From a bacterium (GTDB lineage: Bacteria; Patescibacteriota; Minisyncoccia; Phycocordibacterales; UBA2100), in assembly GCA_030647655.1 (NCBI GenBank), contig JAUSJH010000021.1, forward strand, positions 1-51,901: 51,901 nucleotides of DNA, read 5' to 3'. Positions 4,720-21,641 of this stretch are shown here, piece by piece (the first letter of the stretch is position 1; every line of letters starts with the position of its first letter). The translations under genes were made by a program, and so were the position numbers. The notes below the pieces were generated by a model, which saw only the letters and a program-made list of their open reading frames with translations, ran no database searches and was not told the origin of the DNA.

Positions 4720-5470
4720 ATCCAAGAGGCGTCACCTCTTGGATTTGAACTCGCGGTTGAGGTCGGCGTAATAGTCGCGCATTTCAGCGAGCACCACGGA
4801 AAATCGCGGAAGACGGTCTATCAAGACGCTTCGTGCCGATTCATCCAGAATACCTCGCTCTATTCGCTCGATATCGCTTGCGTAGTCGGGGAAACTGGAA
4901 AATGGATACTGCGCGAGTTTTCGCTGAAGCGCAACCAGATTGGACACCTTACCGCGCTTCCACGAATGCTCGAATATTTCTACGGCATTAAGATGGATAT
5001 ATTGAGCAACTCGGTATAGGTATGTGTCGGTTGATACGTGCTTTGAACGAAACGGCTTCACGAAGATGTTGCCGACGCGGCCATGTTTTTCGTTGAAATA
5101 CATGCTGTATCCAGTGCCAACTTTCTGCATGAATCTCGATATGCCATCATCCTCGATCTCTTGAATAAGGAGATGGTAGTGATTCCTCATCAAACTATAT
5201 GCGCCAATCGCGACTATGGGACGTGTCCGGGGCATTCGAAGGATATCTTCATGTTTCCGGTGATAAAAGTTTTCACGCCGAATGGGCTCACTATCATTAG
5301 CCAGATAAAGTAACTCGGTGAATCGCTCCGCATCACGTTCATCCGTGAAGACAATACGCTTGTCTATGCCACGGGAGTAGCAGTGATACCACTCATCGGG
5401 CGCGAACGGTACTCGCCTGTACCCCATTACTCCAGCCTAGCACAAATCCAAGAGGTGACGCCTCTTGGAT
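4720..5470 (-). mobile_element. HUH transposase bracketed by 28-bp palindromic (REP-like) inverted repeats
   Basis: 4720-4747 ATCCAAGAGG-CGTCA-CCTCTTGGAT-TTG is the exact reverse complement of 5443-5470. Confidence 0.85.
4732..5427 (-). CDS. REP-associated tyrosine transposase (RAYT / Y1_Tnp, IS200-like HUH)
   Basis: YHCYSRG, YSLMRNHYHLL (HUH), YFNEKHGRVGNIF and YIHLN (catalytic Tyr) motifs. Confidence 0.9.
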   Translation of the reverse strand: MGYRRVPFAPDEWYHCYSRGIDKRIVFTDERDAERFTELLYLANDSEPIRRENFYHRKHEDILRMPRTRPIVAIGAYSLMRNHYHLLIQEIEDDGISRFMQKVGTGYSMYFNEKHGRVGNIFVKPFRSKHVSTDTYLYRVAQYIHLNAVEIFEHSWKRGKVSNLVALQRKLAQYPFSSFPDYASDIERIERGILDESARSVLIDRLPRFSVVLAEMRDYYADLNREFKSKR

Positions 5471-5472
5471 TC

Positions 5473-18674: not shown

Positions 18675-18745
18675 GGGCTTATAGTAAAGTGGCATTACGC
18701 GGCATTCGCATTGCCGAGTCCCGGGTTCGATTCCCGGTAAGTCCA
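18675..18745 (+). tRNA. tRNA-Ala(CGC)
   Basis: Cloverleaf with G3-U70; CGGCA-TTCGCAT-TGCCG anticodon arm; GGTTCGATTCC T arm. Confidence 0.92.
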
Positions 18746-18808
18746 AAAAAACAAGAAGCGTAGCGACTATGTTTTTCTCGATGCAGCAGTACTCTGCGGC
18801 GCCAAAAA

Positions 18809-19291
18809 TTAGTTTAACCACCAAATACCGAGCGAGAGATAGGCGGCGAAGAATATCCATGCTAGATAGGGGAGCATGAGATGCGCGGCGCGACGATCAA
18901 TTCCCCACGCGCTTGCGATGAGTGAGAGCACGGTGAATCCGAGGAACAGCACATCCACAAATGCAACAAGCGCCGAGTGGAGCCCGAAGAAAAACACCGT
19001 CCATGCCGCGTTAAGAAGCAGTTGCAAAAAATAAAAACGCACCCATGCGCGCGTTTGCTCCGATTGCTGCTTCTTCGTCCAAACGATCGCGAGCGCAAGC
19101 GCCATAAGAAAATAGAGAACGAGCGAGACGATGATGACCACCAAATCAGTGGGCGTGAGCGGCGGCTTCGCGAGTCCTGCATACCAACTCGAGACCCGCG
19201 TATCAACAAATAAATATCCGACCAGTCCCGCCCCCAAAGTGGCGAGGAACGCCATCCCTACCCGAATGAACGGGTCCATGATCTTCAGCAT
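18809..19291 (-). CDS. tspO: TspO/MBR family tryptophan-rich sensory protein
   Basis: WYAGLAKPPLTP, QLLLNAAWTVFFFG and PYLAWIFFA motifs. Confidence 0.92.
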   Translation of the reverse strand: MLKIMDPFIRVGMAFLATLGAGLVGYLFVDTRVSSWYAGLAKPPLTPTDLVVIIVSLVLYFLMALALAIVWTKKQQSEQTRAWVRFYFLQLLLNAAWTVFFFGLHSALVAFVDVLFLGFTVLSLIASAWGIDRRAAHLMLPYLAWIFFAAYLSLGIWWLN

Positions 19292-19334
19292 ATGCCCGCA
19301 CCATTGGGTTGTCCACAGGAGGAAGAATCCTTTA

Positions 19335-19405
19335 TCGGGCCGCCGAGAATCGAACTCGGGCTACAAGACCCCCAGCCTTGCGTACTGCCACTATACGACG
19401 GCCCG
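19335..19405 (-). tRNA. tRNA-Pro(GGG)
   Basis: Minus strand CGGGCCG...CAAGG-CTGGGGG-TCTTG...GTTCGATTC...CGGCCCGA. Confidence 0.9.
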
Positions 19406-19424
19406 TCTGTTTTGAAGTTCTCTA

Positions 19425-19651
19425 TCGGGCCGCCGGGAATCCCTGCCTGCCGGCAGGCAGGGAACCCGGTCTCTACCCGCTTCGCGGCCGCAGGATGCTA
19501 CGCACATCCGGAGAAGCTCTTTTTTCGGGGTGCCGGGAATCGAACCCGGTCTACACGCACCCGAAGCGTGCGTACTACCGGTATACTACACCCCGAAAAA
19601 AGAGCTTCTCCCCAAAGCGCATGCCGTAAGGTACCGGTATACTACGGCCCG
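19425..19651 (-). pseudogene. Interrupted tRNA-Pro(TGG)-like gene containing a nested tRNA and small palindromic inserts
   Basis: 5' half CGGGCCGTAGTATACCGGTA...TGCGC-TTTGG (19651-19612); 3' half ...GTGCG...AGACCGGGTTC[20-bp palindrome]GATTCCCGGCGGCCCGA (19509-19425). Confidence 0.7.
19525..19595 (-). tRNA. tRNA-Pro(CGG), nested
   Basis: Intact 71-nt cloverleaf; CACGC-TTCGGGT-GCGTG anticodon arm. Confidence 0.92.
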
Positions 19652-19807
19652 ATAGAGAACTTCACCTTGTGGTCACAACTCTCGCTCGCTTCCGCTCGCT
19701 CGGTCGCGACCCCGCCTCACGGTCGCTCGCGTCCTCTACGCTCGCGACATCGTTCCGGCTTGCACAGCCGCACTCAATTTGCCGAAGGGCAAATCTCGTG
19801 TCGGCTG

Positions 19808-19881
19808 TGCACCCTTCAGGATTCGAACCTGAGGCCTTTCGAATGTGAATCGAATGCTCTAACCAACTGAGCTAAGGGTGC
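19808..19881 (-). tRNA. tRNA-Val(CAC)
   Basis: GCACCCTTAGCTCAGTTGG...TTCGA-TTCACAT-TCGAA...GGTTCGAATCC...AGGGTGCA. Confidence 0.92.
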
Positions 19882-19946
19882 GTGGTTGAGATTATCCACT
19901 AAAACTGATGCGTTCTCAAGCGTCCTCTGGTATACTCTGGTTCAAC

Positions 19947-20903
19947 ATGGAGTACAAGATCTTCAGCTTGGGTGGAAACGACGGACTTGCCAAGAAGATA
20001 TCAGCGCGTCTCGGCATGCCTCTCGGCGAGATAAAGTGCCGCTCTTTTAGCGATGGTGAACAGCAGGTGCAATTTTTGGAGAACCTGCGCGGCAAGAATG
20101 TCTTCCTCATACAGCCGACGAACCCTCCGGCGGAAAATTGGGTACGGCTCATGCTCGCGATAGACGCCGCGCACGGCGCTTCTGCGCGTGAGATAACCGC
20201 AGTCGTACCGTATTTCGGATATTCGCGGCAGGATAGGAAGTCGAAGTCGCGCGAGCCCATCTCGGCTCGCGTTTTCGCGACGACACTCGAGACCGTCGGC
20301 GCGACGCGCTTTCTCACGATGGACCTTCACAACGACGCTATCGGAGGATTCTTCCGCCACACCATCGTCGACAATCTCTACGCGCGTCATGTGTTCGTTC
20401 CGCACTTCAAGGAGCTTTTCAGAAGCGCGCTCGCGGCGGACAAACTCGTCGTTGTCTCACCTGACGCTGGCGGTGTAGTCCGTGCGCAATCATACGGCAA
20501 GCGGCTGATGAAAGACGGCGAGCTCGCGATAATCCACAAAGAGCGGGACATGCCCAATAAGATCGCACGTATGAAATTAATCGGAGACGTGAAGGGGAAG
20601 GTCGCACTCATTGTAGACGATATGGCGGATACCTGCGGCACACTCGCCCGTGCGGCCGGCCTTTTGGCAGAAAGTGGAGCTCGTGAAGTCTATGCGACAG
20701 CAACACACGGCCTGCTCTCGGGAGATGCGCTCAAAACGCTCGAAGATTCGCCTATCAAGAAACTTTTTATTACTGATACCATCTCCGCCGACCGCCCGCT
20801 CAGCGAAAAGATAGAGGTCGTGTCGGTGGGCGACATATTCGGCGACGCGATACAACGTATCGAGTCGGGGGAGTCGCTTAGCGCTTTGTTTGAGACCGAA
20901 TAG
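19947..20903 (+). CDS. prs: Ribose-phosphate pyrophosphokinase
   Basis: FSDGE, PYFGYSRQDRK, VVSPDAGG and VDDMADTCGT motifs. Confidence 0.96.
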   Translation: MEYKIFSLGGNDGLAKKISARLGMPLGEIKCRSFSDGEQQVQFLENLRGKNVFLIQPTNPPAENWVRLMLAIDAAHGASAREITAVVPYFGYSRQDRKSKSREPISARVFATTLETVGATRFLTMDLHNDAIGGFFRHTIVDNLYARHVFVPHFKELFRSALAADKLVVVSPDAGGVVRAQSYGKRLMKDGELAIIHKERDMPNKIARMKLIGDVKGKVALIVDDMADTCGTLARAAGLLAESGAREVYATATHGLLSGDALKTLEDSPIKKLFITDTISADRPLSEKIEVVSVGDIFGDAIQRIESGESLSALFETE

Positions 20904-20929
20904 GGGGAGGAGTGATGAGATGACCTCGA

Positions 20930-21001
20930 GCTCTCGTCGTTCAATGGATAGGATGGCTCCCTCCGAAGGAGCTGATGCAGGTTCGATTCCTGCCGAGAGC
21001 A
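20930..21001 (+). tRNA. tRNA-Arg(CCG)
   Basis: GCTCTCG/CGAGAGC acceptor; GCTCC-CTCCGAA-GGAGC anticodon arm. Confidence 0.92.
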
Positions 21002-21049
21002 ATTGTAAAGTGAGCGGCAGCACTTCGTCTGATATGCTAGAGTGAACAT

Positions 21050-21529
21050 ATGGAGGGCACAAAAACTTCGACACTTATTCTGATTGCGCTTGGCCTTGCG
21101 GCCGTAGTAGCTTTTCTTTTGTATATCTCGTCGCTCGGCGCCGAGAAAAGAATGGCGTCAGTCAGCAATTTCGAAGAATGTGCCGCGGCGGGGAACCCGA
21201 TTATGGAGTCCTATCCCGAACAGTGTCGCGCGCCCGATGGTCGGACATTTGTGCGCGATATTTCAAACGATGCAAGCAACGGAAGGACGGGAGATCAGGT
21301 AGTATCCAATGGTTGTGCGGTCGCGGGCTGCAGTAGTCAATTGTGCGTATCTGCGGAAGAAGCATCGGGGATCGTAACGACCTGTGAATATCGCGCCGAG
21401 TATGCATGTTATCGAGAGGCCTCCTGCGAACCACAGGCGGACGGGAAGTGTGGTTGGACGCAAACGTCGGGATTGCAGAGCTGCCTTGCGAATCCTCCCG
21501 CAATTGATACAAGCGTTCAGGTCTACTAA
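21050..21529 (+). CDS. Membrane-anchored Cys-rich surface protein (eight-cysteine-cluster-like)
   Basis: N-terminal TM; FEECAAAGNPIMESYPEQC; CAVAGCSSQLC...TTCEYRAEYACY...C...GKCGW. Confidence 0.7.
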   Translation: MEGTKTSTLILIALGLAAVVAFLLYISSLGAEKRMASVSNFEECAAAGNPIMESYPEQCRAPDGRTFVRDISNDASNGRTGDQVVSNGCAVAGCSSQLCVSAEEASGIVTTCEYRAEYACYREASCEPQADGKCGWTQTSGLQSCLANPPAIDTSVQVY

Positions 21530-21570
21530 TCGCGAGGATTTTTGGTAGGATAGCTGCGAAGCGAAATAGA

Positions 21571-21641
21571 GGGCCTATAGTTCAGCGGTAGAACGCGTCC
21601 ATGGCATGGACGAGGTCGGGGTCCGACTCCCCGTAGGTCCA
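21571..21641 (+). tRNA. tRNA-Ala(GGC)
   Basis: G3-U70; CGTCC-ATGGCAT-GGACG anticodon arm; atypical T loop TCCGACT. Confidence 0.88.

Follow-up and report, generated by a model that had tools for sequence, protein, structure and literature searches.

A complete tRNA-Pro(CGG) gene is nested in the anticodon loop of a second, Pro-like tRNA gene in the 51,901-nt stretch of patescibacterial DNA analyzed here (the window, from the genome we call G000). With a probability of roughly 0.55, we take this to be a real nested tRNA-Pro pair in which the inner tRNA alone matures, an insertion or duplication has left the outer copy behind as a shell, and the arrangement is one of a recurrent family. Comparison of related sequences indicates that the nest belongs to such a family, structurally conserved in the genus and the order. 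A sequence-only reading of this DNA had claimed that an intact gene is nested here, and the claim was borne out by the sequence itself, ARAGORN and Rfam.

In archaea and eukaryotes, interrupted tRNA genes are a textbook topic, with multi-intron, split and permuted forms in Thermoproteales, Nanoarchaeum and Cyanidioschyzon. In bacteria we know of interruptions by group I introns only, which sit in tRNA anticodon loops, as in cyanobacterial tRNA-Leu(UAA) and others. The nest represents a third situation, a bacterial tRNA broken at the canonical intron position by a complete tRNA, in a genome without matches to splicing machinery. Full-text literature searches, with subscription journals outside their coverage, returned no description of a tRNA gene nested in a tRNA gene, and the recurring Russian-doll layout points to an undescribed way of tRNA gene copying, replacement or packaging.

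Architecture of the nested locus

All coordinates of the nest are on the minus strand. The features, read 5' to 3' along that strand, are:

19807-19881, minus: tRNA-Val(CAC), first gene of the presumed operon (ARAGORN, Rfam)
19665-19806, minus: structured spacer between Val and the nested Pro; conserved, a separate element
19652-19664, minus: leader arm of the 13-bp helix extending the outer acceptor stem; perfect reverse complement of 19413-19425
19425-19651, minus: outer tRNA-Pro-like gene; acceptor 5' strand from 19651, discriminator at 19425
19612-19651, minus: outer 5' half, read from the sequence and aligned with 13 homologous outer halves
19596-19611, minus: leader arm of the 16-bp helix extending the inner acceptor stem; reverse complement of 19510-19525, covarying in 14 genomes
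19525-19595, minus: inner intact tRNA-Pro(CGG), 71 nt (ARAGORN, Rfam)
19510-19525, minus: trailer arm of the 16-bp helix, from the inner discriminator to a terminal CC
19493-19509, minus: hairpin 1, directly after the trailer arm; shortened in G000, tabulated in 21 instances
19488-19492, minus: linker with a second anticodon-like NGG triplet, CGG in G000 like the locus
19477-19487, minus: hairpin 2, with a 4-bp stem and a GAA loop
19425-19476, minus: outer 3' part, with variable-loop remnant, palindrome-split T arm, acceptor 3' strand and discriminator
19442-19461, minus: perfect 20-nt palindrome in the outer T loop, a dispersed repeat
19413-19425, minus: trailer arm of the outer 13-bp helix; its first base is the outer discriminator
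19335-19405, minus: intact tRNA-Pro(GGG), without a leader/trailer helix (ARAGORN, Rfam)

The inner gene is called Pro(cgg) by ARAGORN and scores 57.3 bits against RF00005 (cut-off 29) in the Rfam scan; it has the complete cloverleaf, above the curated tRNA threshold, that is expected of a functional tRNA. It carries C1:G72 and A73, does not encode CCA and is the only CGG isoacceptor of G000. Its 71 nt are identical in G063, G025, G004 and G027, making five genomes with G000. The two flanking 16-nt arms are perfect reverse complements, as the sequence-only reading had noticed, and the two outermost G residues of the leader arm are the last of the G run in the outer loop. Position -1 pairs with the discriminator, so that the 7-bp acceptor stem and the 16-bp arms form one continuous helix of 23 bp. 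Among the 41 tRNA genes of G000, only the nested Pro gene has a leader/trailer pairing run longer than 6 (15 pairs), and its stem sequences have no second copy anywhere in that genome. The 268-nt stretch of the nest has a predicted folding energy of -155.6 kcal/mol, compared to -98.8 +/- 5.6 for shuffled sequences (z = -10.1; 0 of 200 as good).

In the outer 5' half, the acceptor 5' strand is followed by a damaged D arm, then by the 5' strand of the anticodon stem, and finally by loop sequence as far as a TGG-like triplet (19612-19614). The inner block of tRNA and arms, an insert of 102 nt, sits just after position 37 of the outer copy and is followed by hairpin 1, which in most relatives has a 9-bp stem and a 3-nt loop. 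The loop is an unpaired GGG in 9 of 21 instances; counted from alignment columns, 8 of the 9 stem pairs have changed on both sides, with pairing in 96% of cells. No further copy of the hairpin 1 sequence occurs in G000. An NGG triplet follows it directly in 15 of the 21 instances and lies no more than 2 nt away in 4 more. Hairpin 2, whose stem shows a compensated double change in the alignment of G000 with its nearest relative, G063, occupies the expected place of loop positions 37-38 and the anticodon-stem 3' strand.

These comparisons revise two details of the sequence-only reading. What had been taken for the resumed anticodon-stem 3' strand of the outer gene is really the 5' arm of the conserved hairpin at 19493-19509; no true 3' strand is left, and inspection of nine modules by eye found no conserved partner for the outer anticodon-stem 5' strand. 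Alignment with G063 likewise replaces the supposed hairpin insert in the D arm by a loss of the D-stem 3' strand, with no clean insert. When the inserts are removed from the outer copy, the acceptor and T stems pair, but the 3' strands of the D and anticodon stems are missing, and the four arms of a functional tRNA cannot all be formed. ARAGORN did not call the outer copy in its intron-search mode, which also lost several true tRNAs, and an Rfam scan at E <= 10 returned nothing for the outer copy, the accessory module or the Val-Pro spacer. Other features held as first described, namely the 13-bp inverted repeat flanking the outer gene, the adjoining Pro(GGG) and the T-loop insert. The last of these, the perfect palindrome, has 5 exact and 4 near copies in G000 with unrelated flanks. 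In G011 and G017, un-nested Pro(CGG) genes have leader and trailer arms that resemble the outer leader arm of G000.

A promoter-like site lies upstream of Val at 19919-19891, and none was found inside the cluster or further downstream. The Val-Pro spacer has compensatory changes at 25 of 51 predicted pairs across 8 congeners. The neighboring protein-coding genes are glpX and genes for an aldolase, TspO and PRPP synthetase, with no integrase or transposase gene beside the nest. The genome itself is 0.9 Mb long, includes tmRNA and is 99% complete by marker genes.

The three Pro genes have long identical stretches in common, and a chimeric join of reads from such genes could in principle have produced the nest. 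We judge such an artefact exceedingly improbable. In run X1, probably the source sample, mismatch-free Logan contigs made by a second assembler cover 19361-19465, 19437-19554 and 19561-19833; together these bridge every junction of the nest at the flank depth of 20-30, a result that bears on the misassembly check called for by the earlier reading. The 6 nt at 19555-19560, part of a stretch common to many Pro genes, have no exact X1 contig among the matches listed. The same architecture recurs in separately assembled genomes, at least 15 besides G000, including G063. Run X2 (share 0.21) yielded nothing beyond pieces of tRNA size and relatives' copies of the spacer. X15 and X17, the RNA libraries, consist of contigs and thus carry presence only, not ends, strand or processing. 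They include one 187-nt contig of a relative (X15), near-identical over 19502-19614, that covers both stem arms and the tRNA between them; this contig may derive from carried-over DNA and is uninformative on cleavage.

Pairing and predicted processing of the transcript

Leader and trailer form at least 9 of 14 in-register Watson-Crick pairs in 21 of 25 distinct Pro(CGG) genes. Genes for Val(CAC), Ala(CGC) and Arg(CCG) reach no more than 7, with 8 or more pairs in 0 of 24, 0 of 16 and 0 of 8, respectively. Judged by these counts, the helix is a property of Pro(CGG) genes among the loci compared. In the covariation count 91.9% of cells are paired, compared to 68.5% in shuffles (0 of 500 as high); both-side changes are seen in 21 of 23 pairs, and controls slid out of register are 38-52% paired. 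Non-Watson-Crick positions in the helix of 37 Pro genes, scored on the tRNA strand, comprise 40 G.T, 8 A.C and 23 others, although these pairing, covariation and G.T counts overstate significance because the relatives are not independent and the loci were chosen via similarity searches. Since G.T (G.U) outnumbers A.C five to one, the helix fits a need to pair as RNA, and the nest helices probably act in RNA. The apparent selection at the RNA level was not foreseen in the sequence-only reading.

In the processing scheme that we favor, Val, the spacer, the nest and Pro(GGG) would be transcribed from one promoter, and the nest RNA would fold into one long helix, almost without interruption, with the inner cloverleaf at its tip. 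The leader/trailer helix would then, we infer, be opened by a nuclease specific for double strands, probably RNase III, after which RNase P, 3' trimming and the CCA-adding enzyme would complete tRNA-Pro(CGG). Both accessory hairpins would be discarded along with the outer halves, and no tRNA-Pro(UGG) would arise from the locus. An RNase III gene is present in G000 (G000:C7:11728-12120, 133 bits), as are a type-A RNase P RNA and a gene of the CCA-adding family; the RNase Z equivalog model gave sub-threshold matches only. A cut in the helix before RNase P acts is proposed on the strength of PMC9433436, according to which bacterial RNase P is inhibited when the leader pairs with the 3' end so as to extend the acceptor stem. 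The nest offers a testable bacterial pre-tRNA, its acceptor stem fully closed by its own flanks, that should block RNase P until another cut is made.

Leader-trailer processing helices cut by RNase III are described for bacterial rRNA operons in PMC10250234. Like these, the nest has a long helix made by its flanks and maintained by covariation, in a genome with RNase III; at 16 + 7 bp it is within the length of about 20 bp or more taken for such substrates, and its compensatory pairing is at the RNA level. It differs in enclosing a single tRNA, in being specific to tRNA-Pro, in being stacked inside a tRNA-like shell, and in that its cleavage is putative.

The sequence-only reading had also raised a precursor processed into two tRNAs, in which excision of the inner block and the small hairpins would let the outer halves be ligated into a second tRNA, Pro(UGG). 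In its favor, the insert starts at the canonical intron position, after G37, and every insert is a self-complementary hairpin. However, a search for another Pro(TGG), as that reading had suggested, found an intact one with encoded CCA at G000:C3:100096-100169 (ARAGORN; Rfam 56.7 bits), and this removes the need for splicing. Searches of G000 gave 0 matches to the tRNA-splicing endonuclease EndA (PF01974, E <= 1) and 0 to RtcB (PF01139), with control genomes positive for both. The predicted fold consists of continuous helices in which, by eye, no bulge-helix-bulge (two 3-nt bulges, 4 bp apart) occurs, and positions 19300-19950 have no Rfam match to a group I intron at E <= 10. The anticodon-stem 3' strand is missing in relatives as well as in G000, leaving the outer cloverleaf unformable, and the T-loop insert is a dispersed palindrome. 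At the Pro(TGG) loci of relatives, the inner copy is TGG just like the outer one, which therefore adds nothing there. The splicing model is already close to refuted.

Introns at 37/38 of archaeal and eukaryal tRNAs are removed, as reviewed in PMC4090602 and PMC3978253, by a splicing endonuclease that cuts a bulge-helix-bulge, with RtcB sealing the exons. The nest also interrupts its host gene right after G37 and has further inserts in the D and T regions, and its long complementary flanks extend the acceptor stem as in split and permuted tRNA genes. However, it lies in a bacterium, its endonuclease, RtcB and bulge-helix-bulge searches were negative as above, its exons cannot rebuild a cloverleaf, and its "intron" is a complete tRNA gene for the same amino acid. 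With group I tRNA introns it has in common a bacterial tRNA gene broken in the anticodon loop; it differs in having no group I core and an insert of about 100-150 nt made up of a tRNA and stems.

Nested tRNA-Pro genes in related genomes

Nested Pro genes occur in at least 16 of 116 congeners. BLAST with the 63-nt 3' module found only 5 of the 116 genomes, so little that the counts rest on the more sensitive pattern and covariance-model searches. A pattern search identified nests in 12 of the 116 (0 matches for a reversed control), and further nests were found in G025, G027, G121 and G078. Across the order, the pattern matched 19 of 401 sampled genomes and 17 of 223 genera, again with 0 control matches. 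The covariance model, R1, also matches every Pro T arm at 40-50 bits, so only matches of at least 69 bits were counted as full modules.

The common layout runs from the 5' half as far as G37 through stem, tRNA, stem, 9-bp hairpin, NGG and hairpin 2 to the T arm, and the order of stem, 9-bp hairpin, NGG and hairpin 2 is seen in 8 of the 10 order-level loci listed. The inserted block always begins after the G run of the anticodon loop, in G000 as in 14 aligned modules. G063 is 92% identical to G000 over the 60-nt 3' module and has compensated changes in the stem as well as in hairpin 2. The outer "anticodon loop" of relatives is variable and often lacks U33. Nests are present at all three Pro loci, up to three levels deep (triple nests in G075 and G078), with different loci nested in different species among the roughly 16 of 116 genomes. 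Eroded relics were found in G106, G077, G062 and G120. A selected scaffold would explain the patchy distribution and the relics no better than a process that is selfish or mutational.

One such process would be neutral: a local duplication giving 5' half, 5' half, 3' half and 3' half, the outer copy being a decaying pseudogene and the perfect helices reflecting either a young event or palindromes homogenized by template switching. Besides the relics, this explanation accommodates D arms that are altered in 9 of 16 outer copies (by eye), T loops that carry unrelated inserts, and the outer arms of G073, which have turned into a longer inverted repeat. We nevertheless think it unlikely, given that 17 genera retain the series of 9-bp hairpin, NGG and hairpin 2 although its sequences have diverged completely and its pairs are compensated, and that the excess of G.T over A.C argues for selection on RNA pairing. 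The 4-bp hairpin 2, compensated between G000 and G063, is too short for homogenization at the DNA level. Pairing of the outer acceptor stems is retained (by eye, 13 of 16 are unchanged) even as the D arms decay.

Conservation of the outer acceptor helix, the discriminator and the two NGG copies, together with the unpaired GGG loop seen in 9 of the 21 hairpin 1 instances, might instead mean that the shell works as a tRNA-like RNA, a ligand or decoy for prolyl-tRNA synthetase or a modification enzyme, from which the inner tRNA is co-released. The features that would serve this role are the closed acceptor helix, C1:G72, A73, the T arm and the displayed NGG triplets; C1:G72, A73 and NGG are presumably identity elements of bacterial ProRS. 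Such a function is very unlikely in view of T loops that are interrupted in at least 7 outer copies, including that of G000, and of relics that have lost the 5' half altogether, and nothing links the shell to any protein.

Under the favored reading, a tRNA-Pro unit with complementary leader and trailer would have come to lie directly behind the G run of a resident tRNA-Pro (G37 and the GG of the anticodon), either because it was duplicated locally or because recombination with a nested allele brought it in, and the resident gene would have become the outer shell. That shell has kept its closing acceptor helix and flanking repeat, has lost the D arm and the anticodon-stem 3' strand, and has gained the palindrome.

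Possible mobility of the nested unit

The sequence-only reading had proposed a decayed tRNA that became an insertion hot spot for hairpin cassettes. The hot spot is broadly supported by nests at all three Pro loci, their fixed start after the G run and the dispersed T-loop palindrome; any movement of cassettes is putative. In a stronger form of this idea, the stem-tRNA-stem-hairpin 1 block would be a non-autonomous element that targets the G run of Pro anticodon loops, its helices being DNA signals. A hairpin-specific enzyme encoded elsewhere (e.g., a Y1/HUH transposase) would move the block in the form of folded single-stranded DNA, or the block would home by recombination via the flanking tRNA halves, and it would survive because it brings a replacement tRNA. 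We regard this as possible but doubtful. Patchy occurrence and triple nests are in its favor, as are inner acceptor stems that are often unlike the outer ones (G000, G063, G004, G006, G024, G121 and G078). Identical hairpin 1 sequences at CGG, TGG and GGG loci of four species suggest transfer between loci, and the NGG copies on both sides of the block resemble a short target duplication. Each of the Y1_Tnp genes (4 in G000, 14 matches in G063) has its own flanking hairpins, but those hairpins are unrelated to the module, and comparison of end architecture by eye revealed no left-end hairpin of the IS200/IS605 type. The predominance of G.T on the transcribed strand is unexpected for DNA hairpins, the stems and hairpin 1 are single-copy in G000, and the locus has no adjacent gene for an integrase or transposase. 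In several genera, moreover, the outer and inner 5' halves do not differ before the end of position 37, a pattern consistent with gene conversion or a local duplication. On contig C3, a copy of the palindrome was found some 0.75 kb away from the Y1 gene; direct flanking was not seen.

Among integrative elements, those with tRNA genes as their targets bring along the 3' part of the tRNA, which ends up duplicated as attL and attR. The nest resembles them in that partial tRNA copies flank an insert that restores the function of its target, and tandem 3' fragments are found in G024 and G120. It differs in that the insert is about 100 nt long (102 nt in G000) and gene-free, with neither integrase nor island between the tRNA parts, contains a whole tRNA and is accompanied by duplication of the 5' half. 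The 1-2 tyrosine recombinase matches in each genome resemble ordinary Xer-type genes and offer no lead. A second class for comparison comprises REP/RAYT, IS200/IS605-derived and Rickettsia palindromic elements. The likeness here lies in short dispersed palindromes, one of them inside the nest, and in Y1 genes with their own hairpins beside them; however, only the T-loop palindrome is present in many copies, in contrast to the stems and hairpin 1.

More speculatively, the unit may be a "homing tRNA", in which a tRNA-Pro between complementary arms and followed by the 9-bp hairpin inserts after G37, replaces the resident gene and spreads, at the DNA level or through an RNA intermediate, among the three Pro loci and the species of the order, up to three deep. 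We hold this tentatively. Such a unit would be impossible to lose, because it inactivates the resident gene and takes over its function. If so, its helices would have a dual use, serving propagation as well as release of the tRNA from its precursor, which RNase P would be unable to open without help. Since the layout recurs, with conserved helices, in an order of ultra-small bacteria, it makes a case for tRNA duplication, replacement and possibly mobilization. As tRNA finders report the inner gene only, nests of this kind go unseen, and annotation of such loci calls for caution.

A tRNA-Pro gene lodged within another

The window is a contig of G000, a bacterial genome of very small size: 0.90 Mb, split over 21 contigs, with 53% G+C, a tmRNA and proline tRNAs that carry C1:G72. 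The window encodes an intact tRNA-Pro(CGG) flanked by complementary leader and trailer arms. Because the base preceding the tRNA pairs with the discriminator, arms and acceptor stem make up a single helix of 23 bp. The block of arms plus inner tRNA, 102 nt in all, is lodged in a second tRNA-Pro-like gene after position 37, that is, 3' of the G run closing the outer anticodon loop.

Elements of the nested locus in the window
19525-19595, minus strand: intact inner tRNA-Pro(CGG) (ARAGORN; Rfam 57.3 bits, cut-off 29)
19596-19611 and 19510-19525, minus strand: 16-nt arms of the inner gene, perfect reverse complements
19651 (start of acceptor 5' strand) to 19425 (discriminator), minus strand: outer tRNA-Pro-like gene, from reading of the sequence
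19652-19664 and 19413-19425, minus strand: the outer gene's own 13-nt flanking repeat, perfect
19442-19461, minus strand: perfect 20-nt palindrome in the outer T loop

This nested feature is real. The tRNA-in-tRNA layout described in the sequence-only reading is confirmed by the sequence, by ARAGORN and Rfam and by the reverse-complementary arms, and the description was largely right. Two details change: the segment read as the outer anticodon stem's 3' strand belongs to a conserved hairpin, of which it is the 5' arm, and the outer D arm has suffered damage and does not hold a neat insert. The fold energy of the nest stretch is -155.6 kcal/mol, ten standard deviations below shuffled sequences. 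Among the 41 tRNA genes of the genome, a leader/trailer run of more than 6 pairs is unique to the inner Pro(CGG).

Misassembly is very unlikely to account for the structure. Contigs of sequencing run X1, made with another assembler, match without mismatch over 19361-19465, 19437-19554 and 19561-19833, and they bridge every nest junction at a depth equal to that of the flanks. Since X1 is probably the source sample, agreement with it does not count as independent evidence, which is supplied by relatives whose own assemblies show the architecture too.

Occurrence and layout among relatives

The Val(CAC)-Pro(CGG)-Pro(GGG) cluster is kept across the genus. We searched 116 congeners for two successive Pro 5' starts spaced 30-58 nt apart, a distance too short for two complete genes. 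Twelve genomes matched, at 13 loci, and a reversed-pattern control gave no hits. Reading of loci added G025 and G027, and a covariance model of the T arm, trailer and hairpin 1 (the first accessory hairpin 3' of the trailer arm) added G121 and G078, so that at least 16 of the 116 carry nests; four further genomes (G120, G106, G077 and G062) have 3' relics only. No Pro locus is exempt: nests are seen at CGG, TGG and GGG alike, and the nearest relative, G063, has them at both CGG and TGG. A slightly relaxed pattern found 19 of 401 genomes sampled from the order, in 17 of 223 genera (control hits, 0).

Most nests have one layout in common: eight of the ten order-level loci inspected show it, as do at least nine congeners that score 69 bits or more with the covariance model. 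The outer 5' half, through the loop NGG and G37, is followed by the leader arm, a complete tRNA-Pro and a trailer arm ending in C, and then by hairpin 1, a second NGG, a small hairpin 2, the variable loop, the T arm and the acceptor 3' strand. Of 21 instances of hairpin 1, 14 have a 9-bp stem and 9 a GGG loop; the second NGG lies directly 3' of the hairpin in 15 of the 21 and agrees with the isoacceptor of the locus. At TGG loci both outer and inner copies are TGG. Hairpin 2 occupies the place of positions 37-41, and in every nest of this layout the outer anticodon stem has lost its 3' strand or keeps just 2-4 nt of it; the outer copy is therefore not a decoding tRNA in any of these genomes. 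Junctions are atypical in G004 and G006, where a 5-nt direct repeat flanks the nest, and in G194, where the outer anticodon stem is intact. These differences argue that nesting happened more than once.

Two genomes, G075 and G078, have three-level nests (L057 on G075:C9 and L086 on G078:C1). Both are at the Pro(TGG) locus, with one intact gene within two successive shells, each shell having its own stem, hairpin 1, NGG and hairpin 2. Downstream of the nested Pro(CGG) at L055 (G129:C34) come, in order, the 5' half of a Pro(GGG) gene, an "empty" stem (a perfect hairpin enclosing no tRNA) and a complete Pro(GGG) gene, which has a leader/trailer helix of 14 bp.

Arm sequences vary freely among species. 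Among the loci collected, 21 of the 25 distinct Pro(CGG) genes, whether nested or un-nested, have at least 9 of 14 leader-trailer positions in register as Watson-Crick pairs and seven have all 14; Val(CAC), Ala(CGC) and Arg(CCG) of the same loci have 7 pairs at most. When 14 modules from at least ten genera are aligned, pairing holds in 91.9% of cells versus 68.5% for shuffled alignments (none of 500 shuffles reached the observed value), both sides have changed in 21 of 23 pairs, and sliding the partner by 1-3 columns lowers pairing to 38-52%. Compensated changes also separate G000 from G063, both in the stem and in hairpin 2, which has 4 bp. In a DNA hairpin G.T and A.C would be expected equally often, whereas an RNA helix tolerates only G.U. 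Non-Watson-Crick positions in the leader/trailer helix of 37 Pro genes comprise 40 G.T and 8 A.C (tRNA strand); like the other pair counts, these are indicative and are not tests, as related genomes are non-independent and loci were reached by similarity.

In full-text literature searches, read at the level of abstracts, no account was found of one tRNA gene nested inside another, or of these bacteria having interrupted tRNA genes. The locus exemplifies a nested tRNA-Pro arrangement that is widespread, conserved in structure and hitherto undescribed.

Decoding, splicing and processing

The insertion site is the canonical position of archaeal and eukaryal tRNA introns, and the closed flanks are reminiscent of split or permuted tRNA genes. 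The interpretation of the nest as a spliced gene is nevertheless wrong. Splicing had been suggested as a source of tRNA-Pro(UGG), but a stand-alone, intact tRNA-Pro(TGG) with encoded CCA lies at G000:C3:100096-100169 (ARAGORN; Rfam 56.7 bits); the sequence-only reading had itself specified such a finding as evidence against any need for splicing. Neither the tRNA-splicing endonuclease family (at E <= 1) nor RtcB has a match in G000, while control genomes gave matches to both. With its defining motif and enzymes absent, an intron of the archaeal/eukaryal type was rejected, as was a group I intron, a permissive Rfam scan over the outer gene matching neither this nor any other family.

The Pro(TGG) on C3 has C at T-loop position 55 in place of the near-universal U, as do some Pro(GGG) genes of relatives. 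Unlike it, the Pro genes of the window lack an encoded CCA. The tRNA cluster of the window (18675-21641) holds only C34 or G34 isoacceptors (Ala CGC, Pro GGG, Pro CGG, Val CAC, Arg CCG and Ala GGC), and the U34 isoacceptors of G000 sit on other contigs. Only 41 tRNA genes were found, none of them for Met/fMet, Asp, Thr(GGT) or Ser(GCT), in a genome 99% complete by marker genes; the missing genes may be located in unassembled parts.

A promoter-like site directly precedes tRNA-Val, and the stretch between the Val and Pro genes has none, which suggests a single transcript. Within it the nest is predicted to fold as a long helix capped by the inner cloverleaf. G000 encodes RNase III, a type-A RNase P RNA and an enzyme of the CCA-adding family; no RNase Z equivalog scored above cut-off. 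PMC9433436 describes inhibition of bacterial RNase P by pairing that extends the acceptor stem, and a prior cut of the leader/trailer helix is therefore proposed. This helix would be opened first by a nuclease acting on double strands, for which the encoded RNase III is the simplest candidate, and RNase P, 3' trimming and CCA addition would then yield tRNA-Pro(CGG). Leader-trailer helices of rRNA operons are cut by the same mechanism, and it is these that the nest would most resemble in its working. The only RNA-library signal was a 187-nt contig of a relative, spanning stem, tRNA and stem into a variant of hairpins 1 and 2.

Origin and neighbouring elements

In some genera the 5' halves of outer and inner genes are identical through position 37, which local duplication of the two halves would explain. 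Other features point to spread between loci, perhaps between species: the inner acceptor is unlike the outer one in some nests, hairpin 1 is identical at three loci in four species, and the distribution is patchy. The route could be recombination via the flanking tRNA halves, or an unknown enzyme. The earlier proposal that tRNAs move as hairpin cassettes is probably near the truth. A tie to the Y1 transposases of the genome, looked for in G000, was not found. Integrative elements that target tRNA genes and restore them offer a partial likeness; the nest carries a whole tRNA and no genes.

Dispersed palindromes, Y1-family genes and spacer
Window 19442-19461, C3:42385-42404, C3:140300-140319, C13:5611-5630 and C15:9615-9634: exact palindrome copies
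Window 4732-5427, minus strand: Y1 transposase-family gene, with hairpins at 4720-4744 and 5445-5471
C2:1609-2355, C16:76548-77255 and C3:138867-139550: other Y1-family genes of G000
Window 19665-19806, minus strand: conserved RNA-like element, about 145 nt long, that forms the spacer from tRNA-Val(CAC) to the nested Pro gene

The T-loop hairpin is a dispersed palindromic repeat that landed in a gene freed of tRNA constraint. It is no intron. G000 has five exact and four near copies with unrelated flanks. Some copies lie within long open frames, and one is about 0.75 kb from the Y1 gene on C3. The four Y1-family genes encode about 230-250 aa each; at three of them, perfect hairpins flank one end or both at a distance of no more than about 20 nt, as in RAYT/IS200-like elements, and the C2 gene has only a 10-bp hairpin within its own reading frame. 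G063 has 14 Y1 transposase-family matches.

The Val-Pro spacer has three helical domains, the last bases of tRNA-Val forming part of the first helix. Compensatory changes among 8 congeners affect 25 of 51 predicted pairs, and an Rfam scan of the spacer gave no match. Two tandem copies are present in G020 (L022), and a related copy lies within a Pro 3' fragment in G120 (L062).
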